Source: a virus
Taxonomy: Duplodnaviria; Heunggongvirae; Uroviricota; Caudoviricetes
Virus record (IMG/VR): IMGVR_UViG_2548877010_000018
Length of the DNA: 14,811 nt
Reading direction: 5' to 3' (one strand)
Position 1 is the first letter of the stretch. Each line of letters starts with the position of its first letter. Both the position numbers and the translations under genes were made by a program. A model generated the notes under the pieces. That model did not search any database and was not told the origin of the DNA. It saw nothing but the letters and a program-made list of their open reading frames with translations. This document shows positions 710 to 7,465 of this stretch, one piece after another.

Positions 710-2086
710 TCATACGTCAGCCCCTTGTGCATATCGTCTGCCACGCGCAGCAGGTGCATTTGATGCTGTGCAAATCTGTCTGGCTTCATCCTGGTCACAT
801 GCAACAAAGTGTCCGTTACAGAACCGCTGGTAAACTGTACCAAGCGAGCCAAAACGGTTTTTCGTCACGATGATTTCAGCAAATGGCGCGGCGCTACTGT
901 TCTCATCATATACCGCTTCCCGATAGAGCATGATGATTGAGTCTGCGTCCTGTTCAATGCTTCCTGAATCACGCAAATCTGCGTTTGTCGGGCGTTTGTT
1001 TGGTCGCTTCTCAACATCGCGCGAAAGCTGACTCAGGGAGATAACCGGTGTTTTCAGGTCTTTCGCCATCGCCTTCAGGCTTCCGGAGATGTGAGCAATT
1101 GCGAGGTCGTTGCGGTCTGCTTTCGGCTTCTCAATCAGGCCAAGATAATCCGCCATGATGAGTGACAGGTTTGGATTTTCCTGCTTATGCCGTTCTGCGA
1201 TTGAGCGTATTTCTTCGACCGATAACCGCGAAGCATCGACTACCCATACATCCAAATCTGCAAGCTGACTCATGCCGTTAGCAACACGTGCCCAGCCCTC
1301 GTCATCCATCGATGCAGGATTTCGCAGTACGCTAACCGACATCCTCCCGGCGTTGGCAATGCTTCGCTCTGCAATCTGCAATGCGCTCATTTCCATTGAG
1401 AAAATCAATACCCCGCGCCGGACGTCAGAACCAGGAATAACGCGGCTTGCCACACCTTCGGCAATCTTCAGCGCCAGTTCGGTTTTCCCCATACCAGGAC
1501 GAGCGGCGATAATCACCAGGTCTTCTGCGTTCATCCCTCCAGTGATAGCGTCAAGCTCTTCGATTCCGGTCTTCAGGGTATCTGACTCTTCTCCGTTCCT
1601 CAGACGCCTGTCAAGCGTGTCAGTGTAGTCAGTGATGATTTCCCCTAACCGTACAGGTTTAACCTCGTCACGGGGCTTTCTGATGGCTGAAAGACGCTTT
1701 ACAAGTTCATCCATCGCCTGACTCGATGCGTCGATGGTTCCGCTTTGGATTGGTTCACGCATTTCATCCATGATTTCCAGCACCAGACGGCGGTGATAGT
1801 TATCCGCGACCATTCCGGCATATCCCTTCAGGTTTGCGGCACTCGGGCAGTTTTTGCTGGTCATCAGGATTGACGTGAAATGCTCCTCTCCGCACGCCTC
1901 GGCAACCATCAGCGCATCGATTAGGTTTCTGTTTCTCGCCTGCTTGCGAATAACCTCGAAGGCTTTCCGGTAGAGCGGAATTGAAAACGCTTCCGGCTCC
2001 AGCGTTGCCAGAACGTCACTGGCGGTTGGAGTTAATCCACCAATCAGCAGGCCACCGATAACGCTAGCTTCGATATCCTGTCTCAT
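710..2086 (-). CDS. DnaB-family replicative DNA helicase (phage type)
   Basis: 458-aa ORF with Walker A ([14 protein letters not shown]) and Walker B-like ([10 protein letters not shown]) motifs and DnaB-like N-terminal region. Start overlaps the stop of the upstream O-like gene (ATGA); SD aggggga precedes the start. Confidence 0.85.
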
Positions 2087-2904
2087 GCAATCCCCCTGTC
2101 TGCAAACTTCCCTTCCCGAACTCCCGTTAACGAATCTTCCCTCAGCAGGTAATCAAAATCTGCCGTCCAGCCCGTGTCGTTGTCTCCGAAGTAAAACGGC
2201 TTGGCCTGATGCACAAACGCCCTGACATACGCTCTGAAACCGTCCACGTTTGGCGTTTTCAGTTGCGGGATAATTTTCTTCAGGCGGCGTTTTCGTTTCT
2301 CGTTGACCGCAACAGCGTGTGGAAGTCTGTCACCGACTTCGGTGTTGTAGGCGTTCAGGAAGGATTCGTAGTCGATTCGTTCTGCCTTGCGACGTTCAGG
2401 TTTAACCTGCCCATCGCCATCCCCGTTAGGGGGTAAGGGGGTATTTGTATTTATTGTCTTTTGTATATTGTCTTTTGTGTTTAGCTGACTTGGCTTATAC
2501 CCATTAGCCGACTTGGCTAATGTTTTATTAGCTGTTTTAGCTAATGTTAAGCTGTCCTGGCTAATCCACTGAGAAACCACCTTGTTCACTCCGATTTTCA
2601 CGCCATCAGCAATGAGGAATTTACGCTCAATAAGCTGGCGCTTGGCAGCGCAAACATGAGTGTGATGAATACCTGTCATGGCTGCTATCTGCGTGTTTGT
2701 GAGTCGATCCATCGGCTTATTGAATCCGTATGTCTTGCGCATGATAGCGAGCATCACCTTCAACTGCCGGACGGTTAAATCAGCCATCAGCAGACTGTCG
2801 GTAATCTCGTTAGCAACGCGCATGAAACCATCTTCGGTATCTGCCACGCGATGCTCCACGACCTCCAGTTGAGGCCTGTAATCAGCTAACTTAACGACGC
2901 CCAT
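2083..2904 (-). CDS. Replication initiator, lambda O-like / replisome organizer
   Basis: 273-aa ORF with an N-terminal winged-helix-like segment and a low-complexity linker encoded exactly over the iteron array, as in lambda O where ori sits inside the gene. SD aggagtg lies 5 nt upstream. Confidence 0.75.
2440..2564. repeat. Phage origin of replication: four iterons plus adjacent AT-rich direct repeat
   Basis: Iterons tagctgacttggctta (2482-2497), tagccgacttggctaa (2505-2520), tagctgttttagctaa (2529-2544) and taagctgtcctggctaa (2548-2564), spaced about 20-24 bp. Adjacent AT-rich tract with tattgtcttttgt repeated twice (2450-2477). Confidence 0.7.
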
Positions 2905-3084: not shown

Positions 3085-3381
3085 TCAGAATTGCATATCA
3101 ATTTGCTTAAAATCCTCGGTGGCAGCCGGGGATTTTTTCTTTGTGATTTCATCAAGCGCATACTTAAAAGCCCTGCTAATCGGACTGATGTCTGATGCCA
3201 TTCCGAAAGCACACAAGACCGAAGCAATAAACCGCCAGTCCGTTCTGCTTATCTTCGATTCATGACAGCCAATCATCTTTGCCAGACCGCGCTGTGTAAG
3301 CGTTGACAGGTTGATGAGTAAATCTGTTTCTGCGCGATCAACGTCGCGCTGTGATAGTTTGCTGTAACTTGTTCGTTCCAT
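3085..3381 (-). CDS. cII: CII-like transcriptional activator
   Basis: 98-aa ORF whose C-terminus (KKKSPAATEDFKQIDMQF) resembles the recalled lambda CII C-terminus (KKRPAATERSEQIQMEF). HTH-like core; sits after cro and nutR as in lambda. Confidence 0.7.
   Translation of the reverse strand: MERTSYSKLSQRDVDRAETDLLINLSTLTQRGLAKMIGCHESKISRTDWRFIASVLCAFGMASDISPISRAFKYALDEITKKKSPAATEDFKQIDMQF
3113..3141 (+). terminator. Intrinsic terminator antisense to the 3' end of the cII-like gene (OOP-like RNA terminator candidate)
   Basis: Hairpin cctcgg-tggcag-ccgggg (6-bp stem, one G-U) followed by attttttcttt on the + strand, inside the 3' end of the minus-strand cII-like gene. Confidence 0.4.
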
Positions 3382-3466
3382 TTCTTAAGATTTCCAATAG
3401 TGAATAGTTAGTTGAAAGGTATGCGTGGAAACGCATATGGCCTTAGTTGGTCAGATATCTTGGGAC

Positions 3467-3512
3467 TCGCTTTTCAGCGACGTAGGACGAATGTCCGTTG
3501 TTACAAAGAGCG
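3467..3512 (-). promoter_or_regulatory. nutR-like site (boxA + boxB) between cro and cII
   Basis: Minus-strand reading gives boxA-like cgctctttgtaacaa (3498-3512) and boxB-like hairpin tcgctgaaaagcga (3467-3480). The boxB core gctgaaaagc is shared with the nutL candidate at 6148-6161. Confidence 0.6.
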
Positions 3513-3522
3513 GCTCCGCTTA

Positions 3523-3738
3523 TTAAGCGGCTTTGTGCTCCGGCGGGAACACGTCATCAAGACTTACTTTTGCGCCTAACTTGTTTAGACACGCAACAAG
3601 AGCACGGCATGTTTTAAGGTCTGGGAAGCGACGACCAGATTCCCAATGTCCGATAGCTCCCTGTGTGCATCCAACTGCCTTAGCAAGTGTTGTTTGAGAG
3701 ATATTCAGTGACTCTCGATATTTTCGTAGGTTGCTCAT
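3523..3738 (-). CDS. cro: Cro-like repressor (XRE-family HTH)
   Basis: 71-aa ORF with HTH (QTTLAKAVGCTQGAIGHWESG), divergent from the cI gene across the operator region. SD ggaggg lies 5 nt before the ATG. Confidence 0.8.
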   Translation of the reverse strand: MSNLRKYRESLNISQTTLAKAVGCTQGAIGHWESGRRFPDLKTCRALVACLNKLGAKVSLDDVFPPEHKAA

Positions 3739-3854
3739 ATGCCCTCCATAGTAACCACGAATAAAAAATACAATATGTACTTCTCAAATACAAGTAAAAA
3801 TACACATTGTGCATGGATGGTTCCAGTACAGAGCGTAATAATAAGGACATGAAA
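3739..3854. promoter_or_regulatory. OR-type divergent operator/promoter region (pR for cro, pRM for cI)
   Basis: 116-bp AT-rich gap between divergent cro and cI. Contains near-palindrome tacaatatgta (3769-3779), perfect 9-bp palindrome cacattgtg (3803-3811) and repeated ATACAA half-site-like motifs. Individual -35/-10 boxes not confidently assigned. Confidence 0.55.
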
Positions 3855-4508
3855 ATGAAATGGTATGAACTGGCTAGATCCAGAATGAAAGAGCTCGGCA
3901 TAACTCAAGAGAAGTTAGCCGAAGAGCTAGGTATGACGCAGGGTGGAATTGGACACTGGTTGCGCGGATCTCGTCATCCATCTCTTAGTGATATTGGTGT
4001 GGTGTTTAAATACCTTGGTATTGATAACATATCATTCAACCACGACGGGACATTTTCACCTGTTGGCGAATACTCATCGGCCCCAGTTAAAAAACAATAT
4101 GAGTACCCTGTTTTTTCTCATGTTCAGGCTGGGATGTTCTCTCCAGAACTCAGAACCTTTACCAAAGGTGATGCGGAGAGATTGGTAAGCACAACCAAAA
4201 AAGCCAGTGACTCTGCATTCTGGCTTGAGGTTGAAGGTAACTCAATGACCGCACCAACAGGTTCCAAACCTAGTTTTCCTGACGGGATGTTAATTCTGGT
4301 TGACCCTGAGCAAGCTGTTGAGCCCGGCGATTTCTGCATAGCCAGACTTGGTGGTGATGAATTTACCTTCAAGAAACTGATCAGGGATAGCGGTCAGGTG
4401 TTTCTACAACCACTAAACCCGCAATATCCAATGATCCCATGCAATGAGAGTTGTTCCGTTGTGGGGAAAGTTATCGCCAGCCAATGGCCTGAAGAGACGT
4501 TTGGGTAA
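3855..4508 (+). CDS. cI: CI-type prophage repressor with LexA-like (S24) autocleavage domain
   Basis: C-terminal half ([21 protein letters not shown]...EVEGNSM...FKKL...[11 protein letters not shown]) matches lambda cI as recalled, including the Ala-Gly cleavage site and Ser/Lys dyad. N-terminal HTH domain is not lambda-like. ORF track starts at 3807 on TTG; ATG 3855 (SD aagga 7 nt upstream) or 3849 is the likely start. Confidence 0.85.
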
Positions 4509-5009: not shown

Positions 5010-5531
5010 ATGGCAAAGTCAAACGTTAGCGTGCAGGCATTCAAGGACTTCCTTGAAGAGCTTATGTCGCTGAACATAATGAAGGAGGCCACCGCTCGAA
5101 ATTTAAAAAACTCATCCGCTCGCCTCTTAACGGTAGTCCAAGAAGAGGAAATGGGTGATGTTACTCAGCTTGATGTGAATGAGCTTGCCGAGCGATACAT
5201 CAACGCAACTGAGCCGAAGCCTAGCGACAGCAGCATTACTGCATATAAAAGCCGCATGGAAAGTGCAATCAAAAAGTTTGTAGCTTTCCAGTCTGGTGAA
5301 GAAATCCCATACACTCCGATTGACAAAGAATCCAGTGAGGAAAAAGATTTGACTGGCGAACCAACAAAAGTCGAAGGCAAGGCTAATGCACTTCATACCT
5401 ATGATCTTCCAGTAGTTCTTCGACCTGAATCAGGGGTTACAGTAACGATTAAAGGCATTCCTAACGATATCACAAACGAAGAAGCCGAACGCATCTCTTC
5501 AATTCTGAAGGTTTACGTTCGGCCTCAATAA
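5010..5531 (+). CDS. Hypothetical protein (173 aa), immunity-region accessory gene in the rexAB-equivalent position
   Basis: Longest ORF in the cI-to-pL gap, with a protein-like E/K-rich composition and no motif I recognise. Own candidate promoter upstream and terminator downstream; appears AT-richer than neighbouring genes. Confidence 0.6.
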   Translation: MAKSNVSVQAFKDFLEELMSLNIMKEATARNLKNSSARLLTVVQEEEMGDVTQLDVNELAERYINATEPKPSDSSITAYKSRMESAIKKFVAFQSGEEIPYTPIDKESSEEKDLTGEPTKVEGKANALHTYDLPVVLRPESGVTVTIKGIPNDITNEEAERISSILKVYVRPQ

Positions 5532-5704: not shown

Positions 5705-5827
5705 ATGTCTACATACAATTTGAATGACCAATTCGATCGAGAAGTTCATGTGAATGCCTATGAACGGATAAGGCATGGAAATCTTGAACATGTGTGTGAG
5801 CATTATCGCTCAAGGCCACACCGCTAA
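5705..5827 (+). CDS. Possible small ORF (40 aa) immediately upstream of a terminator
   Basis: ATG at 5705, stop TAA 5825-5827 (MSTYNLNDQFDREVHVNAYERIRHGNLEHVCEHYRSRPHR); terminator begins 8 nt later. Weak SD; may be non-coding. Confidence 0.2.
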   Translation: MSTYNLNDQFDREVHVNAYERIRHGNLEHVCEHYRSRPHR

Positions 5828-5834
5828 TCATCAA

Positions 5835-5861
5835 CCCGGCCTCCATGCCGGGTTTTCTTTT
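5835..5861 (+). terminator. Intrinsic terminator closing the immunity-region moron
   Basis: Perfect 6-bp stem cccggc/gccggg with loop ctccat followed by ttttctttt. Confidence 0.65.
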
Positions 5862-5997
5862 CCTCTCGCCCAAAAAAACACATAACCAATTGTATTTATT
5901 GGAAAATAAATAGATACAACTCACTAAACAACGCAATTCTGATCTCTCCTTACATCGCCGAGGCAATACACCCACGCTAAAAAACAATACTATTAAA

Positions 5998-6070
5998 TAC
6001 AAAGCGTTGTAAAAAAACGCCCCGTTTTAGAACAAATTGTATTGACCAAGTGAAGTACATATCGTACTAT
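5998..6070 (+). promoter_or_regulatory. Candidate pL promoter with OL-type operator palindromes
   Basis: -35 ttgacc (6042-6047), 17-bp spacer, -10 tactat (6065-6070). Palindromes tacaaagcgttgta (5998-6011), aaaacg-ccc-cgtttt (6014-6028) and acaaattgt (6033-6041) share ACAA/TTGT half-sites with the OR region. Confidence 0.5.
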
Positions 6071-6115
6071 TTAACCATCAGCAGGACGCTGGAAGCCAAA
6101 TGGAACAGACTGGCA

Positions 6116-6161
6116 GGCTCTTTAAACAACGTCGACTCTCGACTACGTGGCTGAAAAGCCA
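6116..6161 (+). promoter_or_regulatory. nutL-like site (boxA + boxB)
   Basis: boxA-like ggctctttaaacaa (6116-6129; compare rrn boxA tgctctttaacaa) and boxB-like hairpin tggctgaaaagcca (6148-6161), about 100 nt upstream of the N-like gene. Confidence 0.6.
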
Positions 6162-6259
6162 GATCACCCAACCACATAAGCTGTGGGATGCAATGCCGAA
6201 GCAACCGTCTCAGGAGGAGCTTCGAGATTGCATCGCCAAAGTTTATTCGGGAGGAATCT

Positions 6260-6532
6260 ATGTCCAGAAAAACAGAATTTAAAGGCACCGCAGCTTCTCG
6301 CCGTAGAGCTCGTCGCGCAAACCTGCAAAGTCAGGAGGCGATTAGCTCCGACAAACTACACAGGCCAACCCCATCACGAGTGGTCTTACAATGCAAACGC
6401 AAACCAGCAATGAGAGCAGAAGTAATAACACTGACAACGTTGACCAGAAAATATGAAGGCTCAACTTGTCTTCCAAATGTAGCTCTTTACGCGGCAGGCT
6501 ACCGTAAATCCAAACAACTGACAGCAAGATGA
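6260..6532 (+). CDS. N: N-like transcription antitermination protein (arginine-rich motif)
   Basis: ATG 6260 preceded by SD gggagg. N-terminal arginine-rich motif GTAASRRRARRANLQ typical of lambdoid N proteins; sits downstream of pL/nutL candidates. The longer track ORF from 6188 lacks an SD. Confidence 0.65.
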   Translation: MSRKTEFKGTAASRRRARRANLQSQEAISSDKLHRPTPSRVVLQCKRKPAMRAEVITLTTLTRKYEGSTCLPNVALYAAGYRKSKQLTAR

Positions 6533-6590
6533 CTTGTGTTGGTCGCCAGAAAATGAAATTAGGCAGCAAACCACTTATTTGAGGTGATAT

Positions 6591-6842
6591 ATGGAATTTC
6601 ATGAAAGTGCGATTTGTGATTTTCGCGCTAACGCAAATTCAGTAAAACCACAGCCAATTGCAGTTCTTTTTAAAACAATGGGTGCGTGGGCTGTTTTATG
6701 CTTCGCCGCTGACGACACTGACGCAAGAATGGCAATAGGACAAGAGATGGAGATGGACCCGACAAACGATGAATTCATAATTTATGGCGCTCCATCTAAT
6801 TACTTACTTGATACCTGCAACATTTACAACAAGGCTGCCTGA
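6591..6842 (+). CDS. Hypothetical protein (83 aa) in the ral-equivalent position
   Basis: ORF with strong SD (gaggtga) 5 nt upstream of the ATG, located between N and ea10. Sequence does not match lambda Ral as I recall it. Confidence 0.55.
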   Translation: MEFHESAICDFRANANSVKPQPIAVLFKTMGAWAVLCFAADDTDARMAIGQEMEMDPTNDEFIIYGAPSNYLLDTCNIYNKAA

Positions 6843-6978
6843 TGGTGGCCTTTATTTTTGGCATAAACAACAGAATAAACACAGCACTGTGTATTCATTC
6901 CAACGAGTGAATACACGGAGCAATGTCGCTCGTAACTAAACAGGAGCCGACTTGTTCTGATTATTGGAAATCTTCTTT

Positions 6979-7006
6979 GCCCTCCAATGTGAGGGCGATT
7001 TTTTAT
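6979..7006 (+). terminator. Intrinsic terminator (tL-like) just upstream of ea10
   Basis: Perfect 6-bp stem gccctc/gagggc with loop caatgt followed by gattttttatct. A separate perfect 9-bp hairpin gtgtattca/tgaatacac lies at 6890-6917. Confidence 0.6.
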
Positions 7007-7024
7007 CTGTGAGGATATGAACAG

Positions 7025-7393
7025 ATGTCAAACATCAAAAAATACATCATTGATTACGACTGGAAAGCATCAATAGAAATTGAAATCGACCATGACGTAA
7101 TGACAGAGGAAAAACTTCACCAGATTAATAATTTCTGGTCAGACTCTGAATACCGACTCAATAAACACGGCTCTTTATTAAATGCTGTATTAATCATGCT
7201 GGCGCAACATGCTCTGCTTATAGCAATTTCAAGCGACTTAAATGCATATGGTGTTGTGTGTGAGTTCGACTGGAATGATGGAAATGGTCAGGAAGGATGG
7301 CCTCCAATGGATGGTAGCGAAGGAATAAGAATTACCGATATCGATACATCAGGAATATTTGATTCAGATGATATGACTATCAAAGCCGCCTGA
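7025..7393 (+). CDS. ea10: Ea10-like protein (lambda early-left accessory protein)
   Basis: 122-aa translation (MSNIKKYIIDYDWKASIEIEIDHD...TIKAA) matches lambda Ea10 as recalled. SD gaggat upstream. Confidence 0.8.
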   Translation: MSNIKKYIIDYDWKASIEIEIDHDVMTEEKLHQINNFWSDSEYRLNKHGSLLNAVLIMLAQHALLIAISSDLNAYGVVCEFDWNDGNGQEGWPPMDGSEGIRITDIDTSGIFDSDDMTIKAA

Positions 7394-7465
7394 GCGCGGC
7401 GTTACCGCATACCAATAACGCTTCACTCGAGGCGTTTTTCGTTATGTATAAATAAGGAGCACACC

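Follow-up and report, generated by a model that had tools for sequence, protein, structure and literature searches.

A putative N/nut antitermination module of VT2-Sakai type in the early region of a lambdoid prophage

The stretch of viral DNA analyzed here (IMG/VR record IMGVR_UViG_2548877010_000018; 14,811 nucleotides, called the window below) corresponds to the early control region of a lambdoid prophage, in the orientation opposite to the usual lambda map. It carries a gene for an N-like antitermination protein and two N-utilization (nut) sites, nutL at 6116-6161 on the plus strand and nutR at 3512-3467 on the minus strand, which are the subject of this study. We are highly confident that these elements form the N/nut processive antitermination module of a VT2-Sakai-type Shiga toxin (Stx) lambdoid prophage of E. 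coli O157:H7. The genes and control signals of the region are given below, with the annotation of the VT2-Sakai record (AP000422) where it bears on them; downstream of ea10 the gene order is cIII, kil, gam, bet and exo.

710-2086, minus strand: dnaB-like helicase gene
2083-2904, minus strand: O
3085-3381, minus strand: cII
3411-3436, minus strand: tR1 region, Rho-dependent terminator downstream of nutR (AP000422 annotation)
3523-3738, minus strand: cro
3765-3793, minus strand: pR promoter (AP000422 'putative major rightward promoter', locus 1766-1794)
3807-4508, plus strand: cI
6042-6070, plus strand: pL promoter, TTGACC-17-TACTAT (consensus scan; independently AP000422 'putative major leftward promoter' at the same position)
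6260-6532, plus strand: N-like open reading frame (ORF), the N gene, 90 amino acids, starting MSRKTEFKGTAASRRRARRAN (Pfam N_peptide, PHROG 271 and alignments)
7025-7393, plus strand: ea10

The DNA from 6000 to 6600 is 100% identical to that of VT2-Sakai, an Stx1-converting phage, 2851, 1717, the PA series and many other Stx phages, dozens of which have N annotated, and the same holds for the pL-nutL-N segment when VT2-Sakai (AP000422), the Stx1-converting phage (AP005153), 2851, 1717, YYZ-2008 and the PA series are compared with the window. In AP000422, a 'putative N-utilization leftward' site maps to window 6116-6156 and a 'putative N-utilization rightward' site to window 3472-3511, pL, pR, the operators and tR1 are annotated at matching window positions, and N is labeled 'similar to 933W L0080 and H-19B N; antitermination'. 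Since both nut sites are annotated there, this textbook module is already known, and our analysis is a rediscovery of public annotation that adds nothing new to it. Compared with VT2-Sakai and the Stx phages of the same N type, the module has no differences, and the window adds IS629 insertions outside it.

The pL transcript probably starts at A6077, within the conserved leader start CATCAGCAGGACGC that is common to lambda, P22 and H-19B. The nutL site lies about 40 nt into this predicted transcript, while nutR begins 11 nt past the cro stop codon and upstream of the annotated tR1 and cII, which places both sites downstream of the annotated pL and pR and on the correct strands. The elements of the two sites are as follows.

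6116-6129, plus strand: nutL boxA, GGCTCTTTAAACAA (RNA GGCUCUUUAAACAA), read directly and inside the AP000422 nutL
6130-6147, plus strand: nutL spacer, 18 nt, read directly
6131-6143, plus strand: nutL spacer hairpin GUCGA-CUC-UCGAC, from folding and covariation, followed by an invariant UACG at 6144-6147
6148-6161, plus strand: nutL boxB, TGGCTGAAAAGCCA (RNA UGGCUGAAAAGCCA; UGGCU-GAAA-AGCCA), from folding, compensatory changes and linkage to the type of the arginine-rich motif (ARM) of N
3512-3498, minus strand: nutR boxA, CGCTCTTTGTAACAA (RNA CGCUCUUUGUAACAA), read directly and inside the AP000422 nutR
3497-3481, minus strand: nutR spacer, 17 nt, read directly
3485-3496, minus strand: nutR spacer hairpin GGAC-AUUC-GUCC, from folding, followed by UACG at 3484-3481
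3467-3480, minus strand: nutR boxB, TCGCTGAAAAGCGA (RNA UCGCUGAAAAGCGA; UCGCU-GAAA-AGCGA), from folding and covariation

The sequence-only reading of this DNA had proposed paired nut sites here, and direct reading of both strands found the elements of nutL and nutR at the positions it had given. Its description of one boxB loop with different closing stems was right for the loop, which is GAAA at both sites, but overstated the difference in the stems, which is a single flipped pair (the second, G-C at nutL versus C-G at nutR); the three loop-proximal pairs, GCU/AGC, are the same. The nutL spacing is longer than in lambda, as had been noted, but is 18 nt rather than about 19 nt (17 nt at nutR). 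Measured between GCUCUUU and the start of boxB, the distance is 24 nt at both sites, compared with 9-10 nt in lambda and 12 nt at P22 nutL, and the long boxA-boxB spacing is due to the conserved spacer hairpin together with the invariant UACG. The boxA core GCUCUUU is present at both nut sites and was kept at nutL in 80 close relatives. Both boxB elements are 5-bp hairpins with a GNRA-type loop downstream of a GCUCUUU boxA, as a lambdoid N/nut system should have. In addition, the window contains exactly two copies of the 10-mer GCTGAAAAGC, one at each nut site, while 0.12 were expected and none of 200 shuffled sequences had two or more. When the boxB elements were folded in isolation as 18-mers, each formed a 5-bp stem with a GAAA loop (-7.1 kcal/mol, z -3.4, for nutL; -5.9 kcal/mol, z -2.4, for nutR), so the absence of a stable hairpin, which had been named as grounds for rejecting the sites, was not what folding gave. 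The minimum free energy (MFE) structure of the nutR 48-mer is the two-hairpin fold.

N is the first gene downstream of pL, and a Shine-Dalgarno sequence (GGAGG, 6250-6254) lies 5 nt upstream of its ATG at 6260. The protein matches the Pfam family PF25694 N_peptide ('transcriptional antitermination N peptide') over residues 1-90 (E 3.4e-32; 111.3 bits, curated cut-off 27.9) and PHROG 271 'anti-termination protein N-like' (E 4e-25). N_peptide was the only family matched in a Pfam scan at E 0.01, in which lambda N itself was not set against the model or the window N. The ARM spans approximately residues 9-21 (GTAASRRRARRAN), with SRRRARR at residues 14-20. Thus, the claim that the ORF downstream of nutL encodes an N-like protein with an ARM was borne out by full-length family membership as well as by the motif. 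The C-terminus, CLPNVALYAAGYRKSKQLTAR, is common to the N proteins of P22 and H-19B; in an alignment of seven proteins, LP..A.YAAG.RK...TAR is invariant in P22 gp24, H-19B/933W and ECP1-type N, and the conserved C-terminal segment LP.VA.YAAG.RKS.Q.TAR is present in the window N. The window N and the N of H-19B (127 amino acids), which has been studied experimentally, are 41% identical, with a 37-residue gap in the middle. A search of N against PDB sequences with phmmer gave no match even at E 10; solved N peptides are too short and divergent for such a match. An identification of the window N with 933W/H-19B N was considered and rejected, as 933W has the 127-amino-acid H-19B type, which is only 40% identical, and the window N is best called VT2-Sakai type.

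To relate the ARM to boxB, viral contigs were scanned for the conserved nutR spacer, and the N gene and nutL were recovered from the same loci, which gave 155 loci with all three. Many of these loci are near-duplicates, and they represent approximately three independent tetraloop lineages and two longer-loop lineages. ARM type and boxB loop type were fully linked at both nut sites, with no mixed loci, in two classes.

ARM G[TS][AS]A[SG]RRR[AE][RH]RA (window, phiSTEC1589 and Salmonella g341c types): boxB tetraloop GAAA or GCAA at nutL and nutR
ARM S[RH][SA]RRRE[RL]LK[AV]KA (H-19B/933W and SPN9CC): GACAA at nutL (7-nt loop in SPN9CC) and GACAA at nutR

A tetraloop boxB was found only with the AA[SG]RRR[AE][RH]RA ARM and longer loops only with the SRSRRRERLKAKA ARM; within the H-19B/933W ARM type, the loop is GACAA in all except four SPN9CC-type loci, which have the 7-nt loop at nutL. 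This linkage is what a cognate protein-RNA pair would predict and is the strongest in silico support for the earlier proposal that the ARM of N recognizes boxB, with which the tracking of loop type by ARM type agrees. The Salmonella phage SPN9CC (L090; upstream of N at 4501) is itself unusual, as its nutL boxB, GCUC-CGUCAAC-GAGC, has a 4-bp stem and a 7-nt loop and a U-G pair closes its nutR boxB (UCGCU-GACAA-GGCGA); an H-19B-like ARM accompanies both sites.

The two hairpins of the nut sites were also examined by comparison among relatives. Among 80 loci whose N is at least 98% identical, nutL variation is concentrated in the loop of the spacer hairpin (CUC, ACUC, ACAC, AUC, GCAC) and spares the stem. 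At nutR, H-19B, 933W, g341c and SPN9CC all have a spacer hairpin identical to that of the window, and more than 120 viral contigs contain it. The nutL spacer stem of H-19B, 933W, g341c and SPN9CC is different, GAUUC/GAAUC, and one contig has GGUGA/UCACC, so that four different stems, all paired, occupy the spacer-hairpin position across relatives. When 17 distinct related nut sites were aligned and the pairs of the spacer and boxB helices were counted, 99.3% of the cells were paired and 7 of the 9 pairs had changed on both sides. The covariation score was 0.537 compared with 0.139 in shuffled alignments (reached by none of 500), and the paired share dropped to 23-50% in slid controls. These results show that the boxB and spacer hairpins are both backed by compensatory changes. 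For the sister system the spacer hairpin was already known, since a two-hairpin nutR has been described for H-19B, in which NusA and Rho footprint on the spacer and N on boxB (PMC3526286). A mosaic joint lies directly past boxA (window 6076-6124, plus strand): the pL leader and boxA (CATCAGCAGGACGCTGGAAGCCAAA.GGAACAGA.TGGCAGGCTCTTTAA) are common to ECP1 and mEpX2, which differ strongly from the window in boxB (CCCGCCGAAAUGCGGG) and in the ARM of N, and past the joint the spacer hairpin, boxB and N are of the H-19B-like lineage.

Of the better-known systems, H-19B/933W has the same architecture as the window, with boxA (where present), spacer hairpin, UACG and boxB in this order. In H-19B the nutR spacer hairpin is identical, the cro-cII (nutR-tR1) interval is identical to the window at 131 of 143 positions (92%), and the differences lie in boxA and in the single C that the window loop lacks. 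In published experiments, the H-19B nutR/tR1 region served as a Rho terminator that responds to N, both in vitro and in vivo (PMC3526286). The N proteins are homologous (41%), with the N-terminal MxR+TxFKG and the C-terminus shared, but the H-19B/933W protein has 127 amino acids against 90 and the ARM SRSRRRERLKAKAL against AASRRRARRANL, and its boxB loop is the 5-nt GACAA, compared with the 4-nt GAAA at both window sites. H-19B nutL has no recognizable boxA and its nutR boxA is CGCUAUUUU, whereas the window has GCUCUUU at both sites; because both boxA elements are near consensus, unlike those of H-19B, the window N may use NusB/NusE more than H-19B N does. A reduced NusB/S10 requirement is reportedly the subject of a 2000 study of H-19B by Neely and Friedman, going by its title.

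P22 gene 24 (N) belongs to the same Pfam family as the window N, with the C-terminus LPGVALYAAGHRKSKQITAR and the same ARM pattern, F.G.A..RR.ERR..L., although only its last 24 residues are detectably similar by tblastn. The P22 nutL boxB, GCGCU-GACAA-AGCGC, has the same GCU/AGC loop-proximal stem as the window, but P22 differs in its GACAA pentaloop and in the lack of a spacer hairpin (12 nt from GCUCUUU to boxB versus 24 nt). Lambda has the same logic, gene order and pL leader start as the window, with boxA CGCUCUUA and a 5-bp boxB with a GNRA-like loop, but its loops are the pentaloops GAAAA and GAAGA and its boxA-boxB spacer is 9-10 nt without a hairpin. The comparison of boxB with lambda and P22 that the sequence-only reading had called for found the same 5-bp architecture, but pentaloops there and a GAAA tetraloop here. 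At the DNA level, patches of lambda identity occur at 4098-4504 (C-terminal half of cI, 93%), at 5833-5948 (87.5%) and at 6826-7929 (ea10-cIII-kil-gam, 98.6% identical to lambda 33000-34103). The patch at 5833-5948 is the terminator region past the cI operon, where AP000422 annotates a pRM transcript terminator; no resemblance to lambda is seen in N, the nut sites or the operators.

Terminators had been noted at 6979-7006 and 14130-14185, immediately upstream of coding regions, and a hairpin followed by a T-run was found at both places.

6977-7006, plus strand: intrinsic terminator-like hairpin (6977-6998) and T-run, just upstream of ea10
14127-14186, plus strand: tandem intrinsic terminator-like hairpins (14127-14148 and 14159-14178) and T-runs, upstream of the ORF at 14198-14542

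The 14120-14195 segment folds with a z of -5.4. Further candidates on the pL strand are at 6831, 7417, 7767, 10955, 11550 and 14579, and the whole window has 31 terminator-like sites compared with 14 expected, mostly on the strand of the pL operon. Because of the near identity of 6826-7929 to lambda, the sites at 6977, 7417 and 7767 are lambda terminator sites, probably members of the tL2 cluster, which lies between ral and bet. By homology with lambda, it is plausible that expression of ea10 and the distal genes depends on N antitermination, as the sequence-only reading had proposed.

Several observations weigh against the interpretation of this locus as a working N/nut module and have to be considered with the alternatives. 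The isolated nutL 48-mer prefers a structure in which boxA is paired with the 3' arm of boxB (-14.3 kcal/mol, compared with -12.0 kcal/mol for the two-hairpin fold), and the closing pair of boxB has a probability of 0.025. The window N lacks 37 residues of the middle portion of H-19B N, and its Nus-factor contacts may differ for this reason. Since IS629 lies in exo and beside the helicase gene, the module may sit in a defective prophage, and a search of the reachable literature found no functional study of the VT2-Sakai-type N or nut; N read-through assays exist for the homologous H-19B N (PMC3526286). The nutL fold raises the question of whether the pairing of boxA (GGCU.CUUU) with GAAA.AGCC is a regulatory switch that couples the two elements and sequesters boxB until boxA is bound by NusB/NusE. 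The same pairing is the MFE structure of the 48-, 61- and 200-nt nutL folds, and the first four bases of boxA equal the 5' arm of boxB at both sites (GGCU and CGCU); 'alternative NUT RNA structures' are also said to figure in the title of the H-19B study by Neely and Friedman. However, the MFE structure of nutR is the two-hairpin fold, and the complementarity largely follows from a GCUCUUU consensus meeting a GCU-GAAA-AGC hairpin. We looked for conservation of the alternative pairing as covariation of the first base of boxA with the boxB stem and rejected it: three loci with boxA UGCU keep the GGCU/AGCC boxB stem, and g341c and SPN9CC nutR and the H-19B-type nutL keep the spacer hairpin and boxB with no boxA. 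A switch of this type is therefore unlikely. A greater doubt concerns whether a module that is intact in sequence is functionally idle, as part of a remnant broken by IS629 in which the nut sites drive no lytic program. Two inverted IS629 copies (1-657 and 9157 to approximately 10466) lie in the window, the second splitting exo. Compared with phage 2851, the window lacks approximately 3 kb where the first copy meets the helicase gene, and this IS-helicase junction is present in only 9 of 5426 complete genomes. In contrast, inducible Stx phages have N, both nut sites, pL, pR, cI and cro with 100% identity to the window, and exo is not essential for lambdoid growth. We regard idleness as a real but lesser possibility, and it would qualify the biological consequence of the module rather than the identity of its elements.

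The remaining alternatives concern the identity of the elements. If translation of N started at the upstream ATG at 6188, the protein would have 114 amino acids and the ARM would be internal rather than N-terminal; AP005153 and FM180578 annotate such an N (a 345-nt coding sequence), and 6188-6532 is the longest reading frame in the ORF list. However, GGAGG lies 5 nt upstream of the ATG at 6260 and no comparable site precedes 6188, which is inside a predicted leader hairpin. Moreover, Met1 of H-19B N aligns to residue 25 of the long form, that is, to the Met at 6260, the Pfam model is covered by the 90-amino-acid form, and 90 amino acids are annotated in AP000422 and several RefSeq records. We thus prefer the start at 6260, and the longer form appears improbable. 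It could also be argued that the hairpins are due to chance, or that they are N-independent signals of the rrn boxA type next to an unrelated small basic ORF, as boxA is very close to the rrn boxA consensus (UGCUCUUUAACAA) and three relatives have TGCTCTTT. Such an explanation has next to no probability in our estimate: it is contradicted by the two copies of the 10-mer, by the strong covariation of both helices, by the perfect linkage of ARM and loop type, by clear membership in the N family and by the canonical positions of the sites past pL and past cro, and the 10-mer, linkage and covariation results effectively refute it.

By homology with lambda, P22 and H-19B, N binding to boxB, the use of Nus factors and terminator read-through would proceed as follows for the N/nut module. 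Upon loss of the repressor, pL and pR would fire, and each early transcript would carry a nut site composed of boxA, spacer hairpin, UACG and boxB. The ARM of N would bind boxB, NusB/NusE (S10) would bind the near-consensus boxA, NusA would engage the spacer (and boxB), and the conserved C-terminus of N would contact RNA polymerase. The modified polymerase would then pass tR1 in the pR transcript and, in the pL transcript, the series of intrinsic terminators that precede ea10, follow it and lie farther downstream, and the delayed-early genes would be expressed. The general mechanism of the lambda N elongation complex has been described (PMC8632103).

The leader of N has further structure, as a long hairpin at 6176-6246 (plus strand) lies between nutL and the ribosome-binding site of N, and the 200-nt leader folds with a z of -3.6. 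In single-sequence MFE folds, the leaders of phiSTEC1589, 933W, g341c and SPN9CC each have a comparable long hairpin; the phiSTEC1589 leader sequence is nearly identical to that of the window and the other three differ. This hairpin is possibly a processing or translational-control element and may be the counterpart of the RNase III/translational-control structure of the lambda N leader. At the other end of N, a 17-codon ORF (MTCVGRQKMKLGSKPLI, 6529-6582, plus strand) overlaps the stop codon and resembles the C-terminus of lambda N (GITCSGRQKIKGKSIPLI) and, we assume, that of phi21 N as well. The same relic is found downstream of H-19B N, and the one at 6529-6582 looks like the trace left by recombination that put a P22-type N in place of a lambda/21-type N.

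Outside the module, the two IS629 copies (IS629/IS1203) are inverted, with arms that are 100% complementary. The first adjoins the dnaB-like helicase gene, and the second contains an ALIL frameshift pseudoknot at 10015-10131. Five of the nine E. coli genomes with the IS-helicase junction are named O157:H7 in the listed records. An Rfam scan of the whole window, with a database in which no nut or boxB family exists, matched two families only, the IS3 ALIL pseudoknot and Lambda_thermo; the latter, a thermoregulator element of cIII, is at 7453-7511 (plus strand, 88.5 bits), upstream of that gene. Two ORFs occupy the 'rex' position between cI and pL (5010-5531, plus strand; 5709-6002, minus strand), and another lies just past N (6591-6842, plus strand). 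These three matched only PHROGs of unknown function (2602, 22865 and 2471), and Pfam and PADLOC scans of them gave no match; they are candidates for accessory genes expressed in the lysogen.

It is through N antitermination that Shiga toxin phages gain access to delayed-early and, in the end, Q-dependent Stx expression, and knowing the N/boxB class of a prophage is therefore of some practical value. Tentatively, and with the odds against it, the VT2-Sakai-type N and boxB could be a separate specificity class, in which the ARM would recognize a true four-base GNRA tetraloop (GAAA/GCAA) and the near-consensus boxA would restore the NusB/NusE dependence that is relaxed in H-19B. GAAA equals the P22/H-19B pentaloop GACAA minus its C, which we take to be the base that is extruded in the P22 complex. 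If such a class exists, the pair would be orthogonal to that of H-19B/933W, and Stx prophages that share an O157 cell would not activate each other's early operons in trans, a possibility of modest interest. In a single N family, the change of loop class (4 nt versus at least 5 nt) goes hand in hand with a change of ARM at both sites, with the nutR spacer hairpin unchanged. Taken together, the sole and modest value of this module is that the switch provides a clean, naturally occurring pair in which to follow the evolution of ARM-RNA specificity.

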